Assembly (NCBI RefSeq): GCF_963921235.1
Contig: NC_086097.1
Location: forward strand, 134,170,001 to 134,234,000
DNA from: Mobula hypostoma
Lineage: Eukaryota
Length of the DNA: 64,000 nt
Direction of reading: 5' to 3'
In this document: positions 36,360-48,243 of the stretch, piece after piece
Position numbering within the stretch: position 1 is the first letter of the stretch
Layout of the letters: every line of letters starts with the position of its first letter
Notes under the pieces: generated by a model
The model's input: only the letters and a program-made list of their open reading frames with translations
Database searches by the model: none
What the model was told of the DNA's origin: nothing
Program-made: the position numbers and the translations under genes

Positions 36360-38205
36360 CACTGGACAGCAAATTTTTTCAAATGTGTTACTTCCTCAGC
36401 AATTTTCTGTGGTTATGACACACCACTTGAAGCTTAACACAAATATAATTTCACACTACTTGTATCACATAGGAATTGAAGAAACAATAAATTAACTTTT
36501 ATTGAATATAATGCATTTAATTGCATAACGGTGCTGATGCTTTGCAATAGTTCAACTAAGGTAAAAATGTCTTGTTGATGATTTTCATTCGTACTCAGTG
36601 TCTGAGGCTTCCTGCTTAAGTGTCCAACAATACTCAGCCAGCACTGATGGATTCCAGTTGCCCTGATGCTGTTTCTCCATGACCACTATGTTCTGGTGAA
36701 ATCTTTCACCACACTTATCACTGACAGCACCAAGATTTGGAGGAGAGAAGTCTAAATGGGAATGCAAAAAATTAATCTTTAGTGACATATTTCACTTCAT
36801 GGTTTTGTATGGTTGAAGCATGTTGTCAACCAGCATGTAGTTTGGTGCTCTGCAGTAGCCAAGAACATTTTCAACAACATCCTTGAATGCCTTCCATGTG
36901 ATTTTCTCCGGTCCCACTAGAAGTTCTTCGAATTGCCTGTAATTCATGATCTGTTTCATTTGTGGACCAACCAAAATGCCTTCCTTAATCTTGGCATCTG
37001 TTATTTTTGGAAATATCTATCTCAAATATTGAAATCCTTCATAGAAATTTTTGTGCCTGGTGACAGCAGATTCCATCCTTGCAGTCTTGAGCCCAGTAAT
37101 CCGATCACAAACAAGAGAAAATTTGCAGATGCTGGAAATCCAAGCAACACACACAATATGCTGGAAGAACTCAGCAGGCCAGGCAGCATCTATGGAAAAG
37201 AGTATTGTCGAAGTTTCGGGTCAAAACTCTTCGACAGGATCCAGTAATTCTGCTTTGGCCTTTGACAAACCCAAGTCTCTGACCAGGTCGTTTAACTCAG
37301 ATTGAATTATCAGATGAGGCTCGCTCAACATACAGCATTCAAAATTTGTATCAGTATCATTTCCCAGTTTTACCTAGTGCATCATGACATCTTCGTCTGC
37401 CTCCTCTAGACTCCATGTCGCTGGTGGCTTTGATACTGGAAGACTATCGTCATGTGGAACAGAAGTCGTGGCTGAAGGGAGATTGGGGTATTCAATTGAT
37501 TTCTCGTTGTTAGCAAAGAAGCCAGACACACTGGTCAGACAGAAATAGCAGTCTGTCACATGATCCTTCTGCTCTCACCATATCATCAGGTTAGTGAATG
37601 GCATTGACTGCCGAGTACCTCTGAGCCAAGCTTGAAGATCGACAGCGTGAGAAGCCCAAGCTTTGTCTTGGTCACCAATTTTACACCCAAAGTAGAGCTC
37701 ACAGGTTTTCTTAACAAGAGGAGTCATGTTCCATCTTTGAGATTTAAGCGTAGATTCACCACAAATATAACAGAAAGTATCGCAGCTGTTGCAATATTGG
37801 TGAGATAGTTTGCTACCACAAATACTCCCGAGAATACAATTACTTTATTATACTGAGTACACAATATGCTTTTCAGGTAGAGCATGTGCATGCAAACTGA
37901 TAAACATGTAAACGCAATGCACAGAACGGTGTGTGTGTAATGCTTTTATAGCCTTTCTAATACATGTCCTGCCATGCAGCATCCGCCCTGCCTAAGCATA
38001 CCTAGACAAGATAGAAAACTTTACAGATTACCTTGTGGGCAATATTTCAGTTGACTTGAATTATGAATTGATATAACAAATAAAGGTAATTACAAAATAA
38101 TGGTGTGCGATAGGGAAATTACATGGCGATTTTCATGATCAGCAGCCCAAAATCCATAAAATACTCCCAAAAGTATTCAAGAAGCTAAATCTTTGTTGTC
38201 CAGTG
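36360..38205 (-). mobile_element. Chapaev3 (CMC superfamily) DNA transposon, internally deleted
   Basis: TIRs CACTGGACAGCAAA / TTTGTTGTCCAGTG; 3-bp TSD TAA at 36357-36359 and 38206-38208; transposase motifs DCYFCLT..IEYPNLPSA, VGPQMK, MSLKINFLHSHLDF, GERFHQ, YCWTL. Confidence 0.9.
37101..37240 (-). mobile_element. Penelope tail fragment inserted in the Chapaev3 element
   Basis: Same tail sequence as 47774-47910; flanked by CCAGTAAT at 37093-37100 and 37241-37248. Confidence 0.8.
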
Positions 38206-41200
38206 TAAGGGGTTCAAATGCAACCTGATCAATGCCTTATAAAGGCTCAGCATCACATCTTTGCTCTTATATTATAGTCCTCTCAAAATGAATGCTACAT
38301 TGCATTTGTCTTCCTTACCAATGACTCAACCTGCAAGTTAACCCTTAGGGAAGCCTGCACAAGGTCTTCCAAATACCTCTGCTCCTCTGATTTTTGAATT
38401 TTCTCCTCTTTTAGAAAATAGTCTATGCCTTTATTCCTTCTACCAAAGTGCATGACCATACATTTTCTTACACTGCATTCCATCTGCCACTTCTTTGCCC
38501 ATTCCCCCAATATGTCAAAGTCTTCTGCAGAATCCCTGCTTCCTTAACACTACCTGACCCTCCCCCTATTTTTTATCATCTGCAAACTTGGCTACAAAGC
38601 CATCAATTTCGTCATCCAAATCATTGACATATAATGTGAAAACAAGTGATCCCAACACCAACCCCTACGGAATTCCACTAGTCACTGGCAGCCAACCAGA
38701 GTAGGTCCTCAACTCCTTGCCTCCTGCCAATCAGCCAATCTTCTACCATGCTGGAGTCGAGGACCTATTCTGTAATACAATGGGCTCCTATCTTATTAAG
38801 CAACCTCACATGCGGCATGTTGTCAAAGGCCTTCTGGACTCCAACATCTGCCCAACCACTAAAGTCAGGCTAACTGGCCTATCATTTCCTTTCTTCTGCC
38901 TCCCTCCCTTACTAAAGGTGGAGTGGCATTTGCTGTTTTCCAGTCCTCCAGAACCATTCCAGAATCTACTGATTCTTGAAAGATCATTTCTAATGCCTCC
39001 ACAATCTCTTCAGCTTCCTCTTTCAGAACTCTGGGGTGTAGTTCATCTTATCCCTGTGACTTATTTACCTTCAGACCATTCAGCTTCCCAAGCACCTTCT
39101 CCTTAATATTAACAATTACACTCATTTCTGCTCCCTGACACTCTCAAATTTCTGGTGTAGTGTCTTCCACAAAGATGATTGATGCAAAATACTTATAAAG
39201 TTCATCCGCCTTTTTTTTTCCCTAGGTTCTCTAGCATCATTTTCCAGCAGTCCAGTATACACTCCTGCCTTTCTTTTACTCTTTATAAATCTGAAAAAAA
39301 ATTCTTTTGGTATCCCCTTTGATATTTTTGGCTAGTTTACCTTCATAATTCATCTTTTCTCTCCTTATGAAATTTTTTAGTTGCCCTCTACTGGTTTTTA
39401 AAAGCTTCCCAATCCTCTAACCTGTCACTATTTTTTGCTATATTATATGCACTCTCATTTGCTTTTATTCTCTCCTTGACTTCTCTTTTCAGCCACAGTT
39501 ACCTATTCTTCCTTTAGAATACTACTTCATCTTTGGGGTGTATCTATCCTGAGCCTTCTTAATTGCTACTGCTGAGTGACCCCTCCAATCAACTTTGAGG
39601 CCAGCGCCTCTCTCATGCCTCTGTAATTTTCTTTACTCCACTATAATACTGATACATCTGACTTTAGTTTCTCCTTCTCAAACTGCTAGGTGAATCCTAT
39701 CATAATATGATCACTGCCTCCCAAGGATTCCTTTATCTTAAGCTCCCTAATCAAATCTGCTTCATTATACAACCCCCAATCCAGAAATGTCTTTCCCTTA
39801 GAGGGCTCAAACACAAGCTGCTCTAAAAAGCCAACTAATAGGCTTTCTACAAATTCCCTCTCTTGGGATCCAGCAACAACCTGATTTTCCCAATCTACCT
39901 GCAAATTGAATTCCCTCATGACTATCGTGACATTGCCCTTAATACATGCCATTTCTATTTCCCTTTGAAATGTATATCCCACCTCCTGGCTACTGTTCAG
40001 GGGCCTGTATATAACTTCCATCAGGGTCTTTTTACCCTGGGAGTTTCTTAACTCTACTGCAAGGATACTACAGCTTTCAATTCTATGTCACCTCTTTCTA
40101 AGGATTTGATTTTATTTTTTACCAACAGATCTACCCCTCTGACTACCTGCCTGTCCTTTCCACACAAGGTGTTTCCTTGGATGTTAAGCTCCCATCTATG
40201 ATCTTCTTTCAGGCATGTTTCAGTCATGCCCACAATGTCACACCTGCCAGTCTCTAACTGTGCTACAAGATCACCCATCTTATTCCATATATGCCTTGAC
40301 CTACTGAGTTCCTCCAACAGAACTCCAAATTCCAGCATCTGCATTCTCTCATGTCTCTAGTGGAGAAGCTGCAAGTCCAAGCCTTCCTGTAAAGTTTTGA
40401 CAGCCAGTGCCATAAGACCATGAGACATAGGAGCAGAATTAGGCCATCTGGCCCTTTGAGTCTGCTTCGCCATTCAATCATGACTGATAATTTCTTTTAT
40501 ATCTCCTCCACAACCCTAGTTCCCGGCCTTCTCCCTGTAACCTTTGATGCCAGTACAATCAAGAACCTATCAATCTCTGTCTTAAATACACCCAGCGATC
40601 AGGACTTCACAGCTGCATGTGGCCACAAATTCACCATCACCTAAAGAAATTTCTCCACATCTCTGTTTCGAAAGGGTGCCCCTCTATCCTGAGGCTGTAC
40701 CCTCTTGTCCTAGACTCTCTCACCATGGGAAACATCTTTTCCACATCTACTCTGTCTAGGCCTTTCAACATTCGAAAAGTTTCAATGAGATCCCCCCCTC
40801 ATCCTTCTGAATTCCACTGAATACAGAACCAGAGCCATCAAATGTTCTTTGTATGATAACCTTTCCATTCCTGGAATCATCCTTGTGAACCTCCTCTGGA
40901 CCCTCTCCACTGCCAGCACATCTTTTCTAAGATGAGGGGCCCAAAACTGTTCACAATACTCAAGGTTCACAATACTGTTCACCAGTGCCTTATAAAGCCT
41001 CAGCATCATATCCTTGCTCTTTGATTCTAGACCTCTTGAAATGAATGCTAACATGGCATTTGCCTTCCTCACCACCAACTCAACCTGCAAGTTAACCTTT
41101 AGGGTGTTCTGCACAAGGACTCCCAAGTCCCTCTGCATCTCAGATTTCTGTATTTTCTCCCTGCTGAGAAAATAGTCCACACATTTATTTCTACTACCAA

Positions 41201-41367
41201 AGTGCATGAGCATGCATTTTCCAACACTGTGTTTCATTTGCTACTTCCTTGCCAATTTTCCTAATCGGTCAAAGTTCTTTTGCATCCTACCTGTTTCCTT
41301 AACACTAACTGCCCTCCACCAATCTTCATATCATCTGCAAACATAGCAAAAAAGCCATCTATTCCAT

Positions 41368-41597
41368 TGAAGCACGTTTAATAACTCCAAAAGACTGAGG
41401 TTTGGTAAAATACTGAAAGGCTTTTATTCGCTGTACAATATGAATTCCACGGTGAGTGTCTGCCCCCGGACTGAGGGGGAGGGGCAAGGCGAAACACCTT
41501 TATATAGGATTCTGTGGGAGGAGCCACAGGGTCAGTCAGCAGAGGGGCGTGTCCAGACAGTTAACCCAGTTACAACATATATACATGGTTTACCACA
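41368..41597 (-). repeat. 3' LTR of Gypsy element 2 (polypurine tract adjacent at 41598-41617)
   Basis: Direct repeat of 45641-45868; the minus strand upstream reads AAAAAAAAAGGAGGGGTGAA. Confidence 0.95.
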
Positions 41598-41669
41598 TTC
41601 ACCCCTCCTTTTTTTTTAAAAAAGAGTCCCGTGGGGTGAAGTGACTGACAATATTTAAAACAAGTATAT

Positions 41670-44650
41670 TTACAGGTCAAGTATACCAGGCGGTCGAGTC
41701 CGTCGCTGTGATCTATGTAGCACCGGTGGTGATTGCATCGGCGACGGCGGTTGTGCTGGCTCTGGCCTGACTTGAGGTGCCAGCGCGTTAGGCGTTGTTA
41801 ATCCCTCGTGCGTGTGCGTCACGCCCAGTATGGGAGTGTCGTGTGGTGTCTGTGTCGGTTTTGGAGTGCACGGTGTCTTGTGGGTACATACATCGGTGGG
41901 TACGGGGTCAACAGTCACCACAGAGTGTTCAGGGTAGGGGCCCGGTGCTCCTGTGGGCACCAGGTCGCGGATGGAGACCGTGTCCTCCTGCCCATCAGGT
42001 AGAACCACATAGGCATACTGAGAGTTCGCATGAAGTAAGTGAACCCTCTCGACCATCGGGGAGGATTTATTGCCCCTCGCATGTTTCCGGAGCGGCACTG
42101 ACCCCGGAGACGTCAGCCAAGATGGTAGGGTGGTTCCAGTGGTCGACTTTCTGGGAAAAGAAAAGAGCCGCTCATGAGGGGTGGCATTGATGGCCGTGCA
42201 TAACAGGGAGCGGATGGAGTGGAGTGCCTCAGGAAGGACCTCCTCCCAGCGGGAGACCGGCAGTCCCTTTGACCTGAGGGCTAAGAGTGTGGCTTTCCAC
42301 ACCGTGGCATTCTCCTTCTCCACCTGTCCATTCCCCCGGGGTTATAGCTCGTGGTCCTACTAGTTGCAATTCCCGTAGCCAGTAGGTATTGGTGCAGCTC
42401 GTCACTCATAAACGAGGACCCTCTGTCACTGTGGATATAGCATGGGTATCCGAACAGAGTGAAGAGCTTGTGCAGGGCTTTTATAACTAACGTGGTAGTG
42501 GTGTCAGGGCAGGGGATGGCGAAGGGGAACCGCAAGTACTCATCGATAACGTTAAGAAAGTACACATTGCAATCGGTGGAGGGAAGGGGGCCCTTAAAGT
42601 CAACACTCAGTCGCTCAAAGGGGCGGGTGGCCTTGATGAGTTGTGCCTTTTCGGGTCGGTAAAAGTGCGGTTTGCACTCTACGCAGACTTGGCAGTCCCT
42701 GGTCATTGTCCTGATCTCCTCAAGGGAGTAAGGCAGGTTCTGGGCTTTCACGAAGTGGAAAAGCCGGGTGACCCCCGGGTGGCAAAGATCTACATGTAGA
42801 GCGTATAGCCGGTTGATCTGTGCGCTGGCACATGTTCCCCGGGATAGGGCGTCGGAGGGCTCGTTGAGCTTCCCAGGCCTGTACATGATGTCATAGTTGT
42901 AGGTGGAGAGTTCGATTCTCCACCTCAGAATTTTATCATTTTTGATTTTGCTCCGCTGTTGATTATTAAACATGAGTGCGACTGAGTGCTGGTCAGTTAG
43001 CAGGGTGAACCTTTTGCTGGCAAGATAGTGCCTCCAGTGCCTAATAGCTTCCACTATGGCCTGGGCCTCTTTCTCCACCATGGAGTGCCGAATTTCAGGG
43101 CCTTGAATGGTACGGGAGAAGAACGCCACTGGTCTTCCCGCCTGGTTGAGGGTAGCAGTCAGCGCAAAGTCGGAGGCGTCACTCTCTACTTGGAAGGGAA
43201 TGGCCTCGTCCACCGCATGCATTGCTCCTTTGGCAATGTCTCCTTTTATGCAGCTGTAGGCCACATGGGCCTCGGCTGAGAGGGGGAATGTGGTGGACTT
43301 GACCAGGGGGTGGGCCTTGTCTGCGTAGTTAGAGACCCGTTGGGCGTAATATGAAAAGAAGCCCAGGCACCTTTTGAAGGCTCTGAGGGTGTTGGGAAGA
43401 GGGAGTTCCAACAGGGTGCGCATGCGGTCGGGGTCAGGGCCAATGACTCCATTCTCCACGACACACCCAAGGATAGCAAGTCAGGTGGGCCCGAATGCAC
43501 ACTTATCCTTGTTATAGGTGAGATTGAAAGCATTGGCCGCTTGGAGAAATTTTTGGTGGTTGTTGTCGTGATCCTGCCAGTCGTGACCACAGATGGTGAT
43601 GTTATCCAGATATGGGAATGTGGTTTTCAGTTGGCACTGGTCCACCATCCAGTCCATTGCCCTCTGGAAGACAGATACACCATTCGTGACACCGAAGGGG
43701 ACACGCAGGAATTGATAAAGCCTGCCGTCTACCTCGAAGGCAGTGTAAGGGCGGTCCTCCCGGCGGATGGGGAGCTGATGGTAAGTGGATTTTAGGTCTA
43801 TGGTCGAGTACACCTTGTACTGTGCTATCTGATTGACCATATCCGCGATGTGGGGTAGAGGGTACGCGTCGAGCTGCGTGAACCTATTGATGGTCTGGCT
43901 ATAGTCCACGACCATCCTATTCTTCTCCCCGTTCCGAACAACGACCACCTGCGCCCTCCAAGGACTTGTGCTTGCCTCAATGACCCCCTCCCCGAGCAGC
44001 CGCTGCACCTCCAACTTAATGAAAGCTCTGTCCCCCGCGCTGTACCTCCTGCTTTTAGTTGCCACAGGTTTACAGTTGGGGGTCAGGTTGGCGAACAGCG
44101 GTGGGTGGGGGGATCCTGAGGGTGGAGAGGCCGCAAGTGGCGTCGGTAGTGTGGCAGTTGGTATGGTGTTGGGTGGGATGTGCGGGTTGGTGTTCGTGTG
44201 TGGTCAGTAGCAGGGTATGTGACGTCTCCCTACAAAACTGGGGATTTACAACAGTAATTGGTGGGAGGGGCCCATCATACTTCATTGTCACGCTTGTCAG
44301 GTGGCTCTGGAAGTCAAGCCCCAATAGCACAGGGGCACACAGTTGAGGCAAGACCAGTAACATAAAGTCTCAATATTCTGTGCCCTGCACCACTAGCGTC
44401 GCTACACAACCTCCCCCCCCCCCCCCCGGATGTCTGTTGTTGTATGTGACCTGGAAGCCATGGAGACCCTCTGACTTACGGGCCGTATCATGAGTTCGCA
44501 ATGCTGCACCGTGTCCGGGCGGATAAAACTCTCCGTGCTGCCTGTGTCAAACAGGCAGCTTGTCCTGCACCTCTCCACCAGGACGTCCATCATTGACCTT
44601 GCGAGCTGGTGGGGAGCACTTTGGTTGAGGGTCACGGAAGCCAGGGTTGG
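41670..44650 (-). pseudogene. pol: Gypsy pol (protease, RT, RNase H, integrase), several frameshifts
   Basis: CLFDTGSTESF (44402-44833); DYSQTIN, IDLKSTYHQ, RVPFGVTNG, YLDN (43481-44065); ESDASD, VEKEAQAI, TDQ, HHCC zinc finger, VDFKG, SDRGSSF (42281-43459); integrase C-terminus (41670-42323). Confidence 0.95.
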
Positions 44651-44844
44651 GTCACTGTCTTGGTCCGGCGCGGTGGGGTGCCCCGTGAGCACCCATTGGT
44701 CGTAGGCAGTGGGAGGTGGCACCAACCAAGATGGCCGCCCCCATGTCTCGCATGTGGTGGCGGCGTGCTGGGAAGATGGCGGCAGGCAAGATGGCGACCC
44801 CCATGTTTCGCACACGGCGCTGCTCGATCCCACTCGCGGTTTGA

Positions 44845-45614
44845 CCCTTCGCGAAGTGGCCCTTCTTTCCGCAGCTGGAACAGGTAGCTTCTCGGATCGG
44901 GCAGCGTTTCCGGGGGTGCTTCTCCAGTCTGCAGAAGTAGCACTTTGCGGACTCGTGACTGGCAGCAGCCAAGGTCAATTTGCCGGCTGGTTGTGGGGAC
45001 TTGAGAATGGTGGCAGCCGAGGTCGATTTGCCGGTGGGTTGCAGGGTCTGCAGCGCCCATGAGGCCATCGGGGGATTGCGTGCCTGGAGAGCCTTGGAGT
45101 TATGCAGAGCAGCCTCCAGCGTGTCGGCCAGTTCGATCGCTGAACTTAAGGTAAGATCAGCTTTTTCCAACAGCCGCTGGCGCACATACACTGACCTGGT
45201 CCCCGTGACGAAGGCGTCTCTCACTAGGAGCTCTGCTTGCTGCGCCGCCATCAGCTCCTGGCAATTGCAGGCTCACACGAGTGTCCGTAGGGCCTGGACG
45301 AACTTAGCACTTGATTCCCTGGGCCGTTGTTGCCATGTCACTAAGCGGTGCCAAGCATAGCCGCTGTTTATCGGCCGCAGGTATTGTCCTTTGAGGGCAC
45401 TCATCGTACCATCGTAGCTTGGCTGGTCTCTGATCAGCGAATAGACCCATGGACTGACCCTGGAGAGTACAACTCTGCGCTTCGCTACGGGGTCGGTCAT
45501 TTTAATCTGCTCTAGGTACGCTTCGAAGCAGGCCAGCCAGAGTTCAAAAGCATTTCCAGCTTCAGGCGTTTGCGGATCGAGGTCTAATTTGTCGGGTCTC
45601 AGGGCATGTTCCAT
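44845..45614 (-). pseudogene. gag: Gypsy gag with tandem zinc knuckles, frameshifted
   Basis: ATG lies 27 nt after the 5' LTR; ORFs 45273-45614 and 44652-45251; CYFC...H...RC and CSSCGKKGHFAK. Confidence 0.9.
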
Positions 45615-45640
45615 GCTTTAAAATGTACAGCGAATAAAAT

Positions 45641-45868
45641 TGAAGCACCTTCAATAACTCCAAAAGACTGAGGTTTGGTAAAATACTGAAAGGCTTTTAT
45701 TCGCTGTACAATACGACCTCCATGGTGAGTGTCTGCCCCCGGACTGAGGGGGAGGGGCAAGGCGAAACACCTTTATACTGGAAACTGTGGGAGGAGCCAC
45801 AGGGGCAGTCAGCAGAGGGGCGTGCCCAGACAGTTAACCCAGTTACAACATATATATGGTTTACCACA
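45641..45868 (-). repeat. 5' LTR of Gypsy element 2
   Basis: Direct repeat of 41368-41597; minus-strand TATAAA at about 45772-45777 and AATAAA at 45696-45701. Confidence 0.95.
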
Positions 45869-47773
45869 TCCATCATCTAAATCGCTTATATACAGCATAA
45901 AAAGAAGTGGTCCCAACACCGACCCCTACGGAACACCACTAGTCACTGGCAGCCAACCAGAAAAGGATCCTTTTATTCCCACTCGCTGCCTTCCTCCAAT
46001 TAGCCAATGCTCTAACTGTCCTATCCTCTTCACACGCCTTTTATGAAGTGACAGGCAGATAAACTCCATTCCCAATTACCACACTGACAAAGACATTCCA
46101 AGTTGACTTTCTCTAATGTAGCAACTGGCAGTAGGGTAAAACTGACAGAAAGAAAAACATACCATCAAAAGGTGTCTGAATTCCCATTATGGAAAGTACA
46201 AGGCAAGCATTAAGTATACTACAAATGATACAAAATAATACACAAGATACTGTATACAAATAAGTTCCAAATATATCAAAGATAGGCTACTGGTACATAC
46301 AATGTATCTTATGCACATTTTCTCACTACAGGTCAGCCAGAACATGTGGCCCGCATGAATATTCCATCTGTATTTTATCTGCACACAAACTGTTCAAATA
46401 TCTCTGATTTGTGGAAATATGCATATACATCAATAAATAATAAACCCAAAGATTACTTTTACATACCGACGATGCTTTCAAAGACCTGAACGTCAGGATG
46501 ATGTCTGATGAAGAGGCACAAGCTCTCCCTCAACTCTACATGGAGAACTGTCTCGACACCTACTGGATGATGTCATCAACTAGAGACACAGATCACATGA
46601 CCTAAATGACTACTCTACAAAACTACCAACAAAGGGTGATAAATGACAAATAAAAATACTAATACTAAGGCAGCGTGTTCGTAACTTTACTGTAATACCA
46701 TGGGCTCTTAACTTGGTAAGCAGCCTCATGTGTGGCACCTTGTCAAAGGCCTTCTAAAAGTTCAAATATACAATATACACTGCATCCCCTTTATCTATTC
46801 TACTTGTAATCACCTCAAAGGATTCCAACAGGTTTGTCAGGCAGGATTTTCCCTGAAGGAAGCCATGCTGACTTTGTACTATTTTGTCCTATGTCACCAA
46901 GTACTCCATCACCTCATCCTTAACAATTGACTGTAACATCTTCCCAACCACTGAGTTCAGGCTAACTGGTCTATAATTTCCTTTCTGCTACCTTCCTCCT
47001 TTGTTAAAAAGTGGAGTAACATTTGCGATTTTCTAATCCTCTGGCACCATGCCAGAGTCCAATGATTTTTGAAAGATCATTTCTAATGCCACCACAATCT
47101 CCAACGCCACCTCTTTCAGAACCCTAGGGTACAGTTCCTCTGGTCCGGCTGACTTATGTACCTTTAGATCTTTCAGCTTTTTGAGAACTTTCTCTGTTGT
47201 AACAGTAACTGCACCCACTTCTCTTCCTTCACACACTACAACATCAGGCATACTGTTAGTGTCCTCCACAGTGAAGACTTTCGCAAAATACTCATTTAGT
47301 TCATCAGCCATCTAATTGTCCCCATTATTATCTCTCCTGCCTTATTTTCTAATGGTCCTATATCCACTCTCATTTCTCTTTTATTTTTAACATACTTGAA
47401 AAACTTTTACTGTCCACTTAAATGGAGAATTTGTAAGTTATTTTTTAAACTTCCCAATCCTCTATCTTCCCACTAATTTTTGCTTTGTTGTATGCCCTTT
47501 CTACTGTTTTTACAATAGCTTTGACTTCCCTTGTCAGCCACAGTTGTACCATTTTTTCATTTGAGTATTTCTTCATTTTTCTCCTGTACCTTCCTCAATA
47601 TTCCCAGAAATGCATGCCATTGCTGTTCTACTGACATCCCTGCCAGCAGCTCCCTCCTTTGGCCAACTCCACTCTCACACCACTGTAATTTCCCTTACTC
47701 CACTGAAATATTCCTACATCAGACTTTACTTTCTCCCTATCAAATTTCAAATTGAACACAATCATATTGTGAT

Positions 47774-48243
47774 GCAGACACGAGGAAATCTGCAGATGCT
47801 GGAAATTCAAGCAACACACACAAAAGTTGCTGGTGAACGCAGCAGGCCAGGCAGCATCTATAGGAAGAGGTACAGTCGATGTTTTGGGCTGGGACCCTTC
47901 GTCAGGACTAACTGAAAGAAGAGATAGTAAAAGATTTGAAAGGGGGAGGGGGAGATCTGAAATGATAAGACCTGGATTCAGAATTTATCTCGAGATGTAT
48001 CAGAATCCGGTTTATTGGCACAGACAGCACCCATTATCAACTTTCCAGCTCTTAGCTTCATCCCTCCCCTTTCTGTCTTCTCCTATCATTTCGGATCTCG
48101 CCCTCCTCCTCACACTTTCAAATCTCTTACCATCTCTTCTTTCAGTTAGTCCTGACGAAGGGTCCCGGCCCGAAGCATCGACTGTACCTCTTCCTATAGA
48201 TGCTGCCTGGCCTGCTGCGTTCACCAGCATTTTTTGTGTGTGT
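47774..48243. mobile_element. Penelope-derived inverted pseudo-LTR pair with 15-bp TSD
   Basis: Arms at about 47815-47968 (minus) and about 48080-48243 (plus) are reverse complements; TSD CAATC(A/G)TATTGTGAT at 47759-47773 and 48244-48258. Confidence 0.92.

Follow-up and report, generated by a model that had tools for sequence, protein, structure and literature searches.

A Ty3/Gypsy element of Mobula hypostoma that probably primes reverse transcription with its own LTR, and the inverted mini-elements related to it

The 64,000-nucleotide stretch of Mobula hypostoma DNA analysed here (assembly GCF_963921235.1, contig NC_086097.1, positions 134,170,001 to 134,234,000; hereafter the window) harbors a Gypsy element in which the place expected for a tRNA primer-binding site is taken by a complement of the element's own LTR. 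This raises the question of which molecule primes the minus-strand DNA synthesis of such an element. Among Gypsy elements, self-priming has been associated with the Tf1/sushi chromoviruses and has served to recognize them (accessible text of PMC6317226 and PMC10085805), and the only self-primers named in the accessible text of PMC6317226 are Tf1/sushi, Tcn1 and Copia TAR elements. For Tf1, pairing with the primer site involves the first 11 bases, and cleavage by RNase H falls between bases 11 and 12 (available parts of PMC7175516, PMC10085805 and PMC4600332). By analogy with such elements, we consider it very probable that part of the element's own LTR, and not a tRNA, serves as the primer of its minus-strand synthesis.

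The element is a decayed member, 4.5 kb long and on the minus strand (41368-45868), of a high-copy Ty3/Gypsy retrotransposon family. The order of its pol domains, protease, RT, RNase H and integrase, is that of Ty3/Gypsy, and the TG..CA LTRs, short target duplication and polypurine tract are hallmarks of the same group. The best match among solved structures is Ty3 Gag-Pol. The positions of all features are given in Table 1. The LTR borders were confirmed by four contig-only sequencing runs. Gag contains two zinc knuckles of the CX2CX4HX4C type, near 44942 and 44882, and no Pfam family, a chromodomain included, matches the tail of the window integrase. The description in an earlier note on this DNA, an element with double zinc knuckles and no chromodomain, was correct except that the second knuckle lacks its last Cys here. 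The element is nested in the RT region of a decayed LINE (45869-45966 and 41051-41367), which we take to be CR1-like from a motif; related LINE pieces are found again at 38230-38705. Elsewhere in the window, segments 47814-47954 and 48103-48243 form 141-nt inverted arms, 93% complementary and with 148 nt between them. Part of these arms recurs at 37108-37239, which suggests, from the sequence, two opposed copies of a short repeat.

Table 1. Features of the Gypsy element, in the order of its transcript.
Feature	Position in window	Strand	Remarks
Target-site duplication ATGGA, upstream copy	45869..45873	-	Same 5-mer at both flanks
5' LTR, 228 bp, TG..CA	45641..45868	-	Borders recur as loose ends in sequencing contigs
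TATA box TATAAAG	45771..45777	-	From sequence; 31-34 nt to the initiator in 108 copies
Initiator-like CTCAGTC	45742..45748	-	0/8 sites polymorphic; predicted transcript start near 45745
LTR arm, candidate 3' end of self-primer	45695..45710	-	Includes AATAAA (45701-45696); predicted cut 45695/45694
Hairpin directly behind predicted cut	45647..45694	-	About 45694-45684 with 45656-45647
Putative primer-binding site	45624..45639	-	Perfect complement of arm; single spacer base 45640
gag	44810..45614	-	ATG at 45614; in-frame stop near 45275; 3' end approximate
pol: protease, RT (YLDN), RNase H, integrase	41670..44659	-	Disrupted by stops and frameshifts
Polypurine tract	41598..41617	-	
3' LTR, 230 bp	41368..41597	-	94% identity to 5' LTR over 218 nt
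Target-site duplication ATGGA, downstream copy	41363..41367	-	

One base after the 5' LTR (the LTR+1 register), the transcript strand carries 16 nt that are 100% complementary to an arm inside the LTR, with AATAAA in the paired segment and 55 nt between the two. This had been noticed earlier, and the coordinates proved exact; the gag ATG, then placed within about 10 nt, lies 9 nt past the primer-site arm. No TGG occurs within 26 nt after the 5' LTR, nor do any of the 27 families of relatives described below have a TGG-type site, in line with the earlier claim that such a site is missing. The window contains the 16-mer at three places, one in each LTR and one, in inverted orientation, at the primer position; shuffles yielded no occurrence. 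The 3' LTR carries the arm (41422-41437) with no complement downstream of it, as had also been stated. With the register fixed at LTR+1, 16 nt of pairing was reached in 0 of 200 dinucleotide shuffles (best 9 nt), and the fold of 45745-45600 has a z-score of −4.7. These two values exclude a chance origin of the pairing.

The pairing is conserved in the family to which the element belongs. A query with the LTR-gag sequence gave 2616 first-look candidates in the genome, and the 40 that were scored are 94-100% identical. The 5' ends of 140 copies were aligned, 30 from this query and 110 of 150 places in a second listing. At least 13 of the first 15 positions pair in 123 of the 140 copies; absence of the complementarity from other copies and related families is one of two findings that the earlier note had regarded as fatal to its proposal. 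Compensatory changes on both sides, which that note had suggested looking for across related families, were found among these copies at four positions counted from the 3' end of the arm: −8 (GC in 84 copies, TA in 27), −9 (CG in 97, TA in 13), −11 (AT in 83, TA in 43) and −15 (GC in 78, TA in 44). The linkage of position −8 with its pairing partner (r2 of 0.87) is higher than with the best other site (0.79), and pairing at position −16 is not kept (59/140 copies). The subfamilies of this one genome switch both arms jointly. Strand-transfer junctions were sought from subfamily recombinants, where the patterns mostly track lineage.

A search with the RT sequence gave 1267 matches. Named relatives with 76-90% identity come from rays and sharks, and those with 57-64% identity from insects, corals, a crab, a sea cucumber and a nematode. 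No relatives were found in the viral contig collection, and the ESM Atlas contained generic Gag clusters only. DNA of relatives was obtained from 86 metagenome and genome-bin loci, 48 of them with enough sequence upstream of gag. In 37 of the 48, a perfect complement of at least 10 nt is located at LTR+1, with 0 of 200 shuffles reaching this in each case; two further relatives pass after correction of the gag start (39/48). Among the nine failing loci, three are damaged copies of passing families, L074 has 8 nt, the pair in L043 was recognized only by eye, and the remaining four show neither pairing nor a matching upstream LTR. In L043, as in L040, the pair is seen by eye against the element's own 3' LTR. 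Eight elements of this animal-type clade lie inside bacterial genome bins (L109-L116), most likely as host contamination. The RT active-site motif is YLDN and not YLDD in most clade members; a few have YLDD.

Hand-picking from the passing loci gave 27 families, in all of which the arms pair fully to −11, a result partly built in by this choice. Pairing is retained at −13 in 25 of 27 and at −16 in 15 of 26 families, and is at background beyond −18. Among the 27 families, 24 different 11-nt cores occur, each primer-site core matching its own LTR, and perfect matches between the cores of different families occur in just 6 of 702 pairs. The covariation seen within the genome of M. hypostoma is also found between families. 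The base after the arm is a purine in 25 of 27 families, followed by C (25/27) and another C (26/27). In 25 of 27 families, bases +1 to +3 behind the predicted cut are paired to a higher degree than in shuffled loops (mean 0.80 against 0.44), and further helices that would form a three-duplex "pretzel" with this hairpin at the predicted cut are inconsistent across families. In 24 of 27 families, −11 is A or T and −10 is G, an initiator-like arrangement that fits an 11-nt primer of the Tf1 type, and most relatives have no TATA box at a fixed distance. Primer length may therefore differ within the clade. In L032, L037, L048 and L105, the primer-site duplex stops right at the gag ATG and could also influence translation, and in L073 (about 140-260) the 11-nt primer site occurs twice before gag, each time preceded by CA.

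As controls, 20 other Gypsy loci were taken from the same genome, 17 of them with LTR pairs. Twelve elements from tRNA-primed groups have an LTR complement of just 4-7 nt. Among the five chromovirus-type loci, two have 10-11 nt at LTR+1, about 30 nt past a TATA-like box, and three have 5-8 nt; a chromodomain was confirmed in two chromovirus-type controls. The RT was also placed in a phylogeny, as the earlier note had proposed. In a tree of 19 RT-RNase H rows, with outgroups drawn from the same genome and no fungal references, the clade stands on one side of a long branch with support of 100/100, apart from the sushi-type chromoviruses. The topology in which the clade and the sushi-type rows are forced together is narrowly rejected (AU p = 0.041). 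A quick tree of 56 rows agrees. The labels Gmr1-type and Mag-like for outgroups are our assumption from their features.

The complementarity of the primer site to the element's own LTR is shared with Tf1 and Tf2 of Schizosaccharomyces pombe, Tj1, Tosmo1-3, Tcry1 and the Tf1/sushi chromoviruses, and the LTR+1 register with the sushi-type elements of the same genome. In contrast to the Tf1/sushi group, neither a chromodomain nor an SH3_Tf2-1 domain was matched in any of seven full-length relatives, in a search in which the positive control was detected. The duplex in the clade measures 11-19 nt, usually with a poly(A) hexamer inside it, and encloses a loop of mostly 23-68 nt, and a local hairpin follows directly behind the predicted cut, all unlike Tf1/sushi. 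In the window element, the TATA box is about 67 nt upstream of the arm, compared with about 30 nt in the sushi-type controls. On the sequence evidence, the element appears to work like Tf1, and the lack of a chromodomain and the RT-RNase H clustering place it outside the Tf1/sushi group. According to the accessible text of PMC6317226, self-priming in plants is recognized by complementarity of at least 10 nt starting 0-5 nt after the LTR. The pairing in the window falls within this range, as it does in the Tcn1 clade and the Copia TAR lineage (Houba, Osr-1); unlike Tcn1, which is a chromovirus clade, and TAR, which is Copia, the element has the Gypsy domain order and no chromodomain.

A further view of the primer site comes from integrated by-products. 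At some junctions in the genome, the primer site leads straight into an LTR copy in inverted orientation. A search of two subfamilies gave a total of 73 such run-on junctions, 52 in one subfamily and 21 in the other, and reversed-pattern controls gave 0. In the first subfamily, the 52 run-ons stand against 719 normal junctions (6.7%). The sushi-type family shows 0 run-ons against 96 normal junctions, a comparison affected by the greater age of its copies and a different stringency of the pattern. Seventy-one of the 73 run-ons were read: 48 end at the LTR start, 3 near it, 10 enter the polypurine tract and 10 are short. The 48 that end at the LTR start are inverted mini-elements with a median of 406 bp. 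Among the by-products (L278-L348, 71 loci), these mini-elements consist of a whole LTR, one base, and then the inverted arm and U3. Of the 34 with both ends, 24 have perfect 5-bp target duplications, all different, and four more have one mismatch; cross-pairing of flanks gave 4 of 1190. The ten long run-ons continue in antisense past U3 and reach the polypurine tract and integrase, some for more than 1.5 kb, and some by-products jump back to sense internal sequence.

Nine of the ten short run-ons stop 28-57 nt from the cut (28, 33, 33, 39, 50, 50, 52, 55 and 57 nt), five of them at 50-57 nt, beside the initiator, and the tenth measures 164 nt with an internal deletion. Nine stops within 57 nt have a p-value near 1e-5 under a uniform model. 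Several short run-ons show microhomology and later insertions or deletions; among the five ending at 50-57 nt, the jump lies at or close to microhomology in two, and another repeat breaks up one. These stops are only suggestive of an RNA 5' end near 45745. In the short run-ons L307 (50 nt) and L309 (about 29-33 nt), the 5-mer of the left flank recurs within a few bases, a pattern that insertion of a strong-stop duplex by a single proper end might leave. A primer boundary at −51 was not visible as an excess of differences in the arms of the mini-elements (95/1754 in the first 52 nt against 207/4148 beyond). Among non-CpG arm differences, 36 of 225 are common family alleles, the expectation being at most about 8%; this indicates that some run-ons were copied from a second molecule.

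In the standard scheme, as described for Ty3 in the accessible text of PMC5371799, the last stretch of plus-strand strong-stop DNA is copied from the primer. On this scheme, the frequent branch point at the end of the primer site marks it as a likely working primer site, with a primer that has the sequence of the arm. The run-on products reveal where strong-stop DNA ends and not which molecule primed. The mini-elements likely record a misfiring of this copying step.

The following course of events is proposed. Both a TATA box and an initiator are present in 108 of the 140 copies, always at the tabulated spacing and with varying sequence between them; in 38 of these 108, the TATA position reads GAATAAAG, a weaker box, and the initiator A is mostly 51 or 53-54 nt upstream of the arm end. 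This spacing points to a transcript start about 51 nt before the 3' end of the paired segment, and the earlier remark that a TATA-based start would not fit the geometry of Tf1 was borne out. We somewhat prefer a start near the initiator at 45745, and a primer of about 51 nt is accordingly the favoured length on sequence features; a Tf1-like start within 45710-45705 is possible but doubtful, and a start anywhere else is unlikely. The contigs of two metagenomic relatives, L060 and L072, open at or just before the arm, with LTR parts of 77 and 55 nt; they were rejected as evidence for the start site because these lengths are typical assembler word sizes. After transcription, the arm would anneal to the primer site and the hairpin would arise directly behind it. 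RNase H of the element would then cut past the last A of the arm; the cut is proposed by analogy with Tf1, and the enzyme and the transcript start are likewise predictions. Synthesis from the freed 3' end would proceed through U5 and then R until it reached the cut, and the first strand transfer would have roughly 15-25 nt available between the cut and the poly(A) site. At its end, plus-strand strong-stop DNA would carry the copied primer site, whose sequence is complementary to the arm, and this end might sometimes anneal to its own arm or to that of a second RNA and run on, giving rise to the inverted mini-elements.

Other explanations of the primer site have to be weighed against this scheme. 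The primer might be a tRNA, a tRNA half or another host RNA, the match to the LTR being incidental. Priming by half-tRNAs without TGG is known in Copia lineages (accessible text of PMC6317226). The best tRNA complement to the primer site was 3 nt, in a weak comparison set of tRNA-Lys(ttt) only, with 30 loci fetched of 60 tRNA matches (35 genes, 9 distinct). A host primer of this kind is nevertheless extremely improbable: it would be at odds with the 24 different cores that each match their own LTR and with the concerted change of both arms among the subfamilies of one genome, and Rfam has no match in 45400-45950. Among the tRNA loci themselves, a tandem cluster of tRNA-Lys(ttt) with a spacing of about 1.5-3 kb was observed at about 4.0-4.3 Mb of G000:C90 (L253-L276). 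A different possibility is that the element does prime itself, with the arm of the 3' LTR or of a second packaged RNA in place of the nearby 5' arm. The same arm is indeed present in the 3' LTR, ten run-ons extend into the polypurine tract and integrase, and the family alleles point to a second molecule in some cases. The 5' arm is, however, just 55 nt away in a strong fold, the long run-ons can be explained by mis-annealed strong-stop DNA with no need for a 3' primer, and a cut in the R of the 3' LTR would presumably shorten the transfer acceptor, which makes priming from a distance very unlikely.

The duplex might also serve mainly to hide the poly(A) signal of the 5' LTR, with priming by another route. 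A poly(A) hairpin is known in HIV-1 as a parallel for such masking. Predicted folds have AATAAA paired at 99-100% in the 5' context and 2-71% in the 3' context, and the arm includes AATAAA or ATTAAA in 17 of 27 families. The other ten families have no canonical hexamer in the paired arm (three of them carry it in the loop), so masking is probably not the main purpose. Neither would masking require a fixed LTR+1 register; the run-on products branch exactly at the primer site, and no alternative primer site is visible in the short leaders, which have 10-50 nt to the ATG. We therefore regard masking with priming by another route as very unlikely indeed. Of the earlier suggestion that the hairpin masks the 5' poly(A) signal instead of or in addition to priming, the additional role follows from the fold, and masking confined to the 5' LTR is likely a second benefit. 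Self-priming by the nearby LTR arm, which the earlier note had proposed, is supported by the covariation and by the retention of the pairing in copies and relatives, and the tRNA genes compared offered no match.

With respect to its affiliation, the element resembles the Mag lineage in its short LTRs and in the double zinc knuckle of Gag, which is a feature of Mag. The Mag-like elements of the same genome differ from it in having TGG-type sites, and they make up a clade of their own. The relatives found here resemble Cigr-1 in their dimensions and may be affiliated with it; Cigr-1 has a length of about 4.2 kb, LTRs of nearly 245 bp and a single ORF of around 1200 aa. Clades named Cigr-1 and MolGy, from Ciona, molluscs and annelids, appear in the accessible text of PMC6238403 and PMC8556966; a search of four supplements of PMC6238403 for three motifs gave no match. 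A name for the clade, or a mention of it in Repbase or GyDB, may already exist. The literature covered, to which Repbase, GyDB and most subscription papers do not belong, gave in its accessible text no description of self-priming in a non-chromovirus animal Gypsy clade and no report of such inverted by-products.

The basic mechanism of self-priming has been known since Tf1; what is added here are recurrent integrated fold-back products, same-genome controls and a hairpin where the cut is predicted. Our broadest reading is held tentatively: self-priming may have arisen separately in a large non-chromovirus clade of animal Gypsy elements, and in the present family the primer would be a capped piece of about 50 nt, cut within R where the poly(A) signal ends. 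A single sequence would then act as primer, as poly(A) signal and as a switch of the 5' poly(A) site, and the fold-backs at about 7% of junctions, with their mini-elements of about 405 bp, would be a fossil map of the intermediates. Repeat annotation would tally these inverted mini-elements as odd solo LTRs, and they allow intermediates of reverse transcription to be read from a genome. If the reading is true, a second widespread animal clade uses the same register with another primer geometry, which would mean that independence of tRNA evolved repeatedly or is older than thought, and the clade would provide a vertebrate system for asking how RT cuts an RNA duplex.
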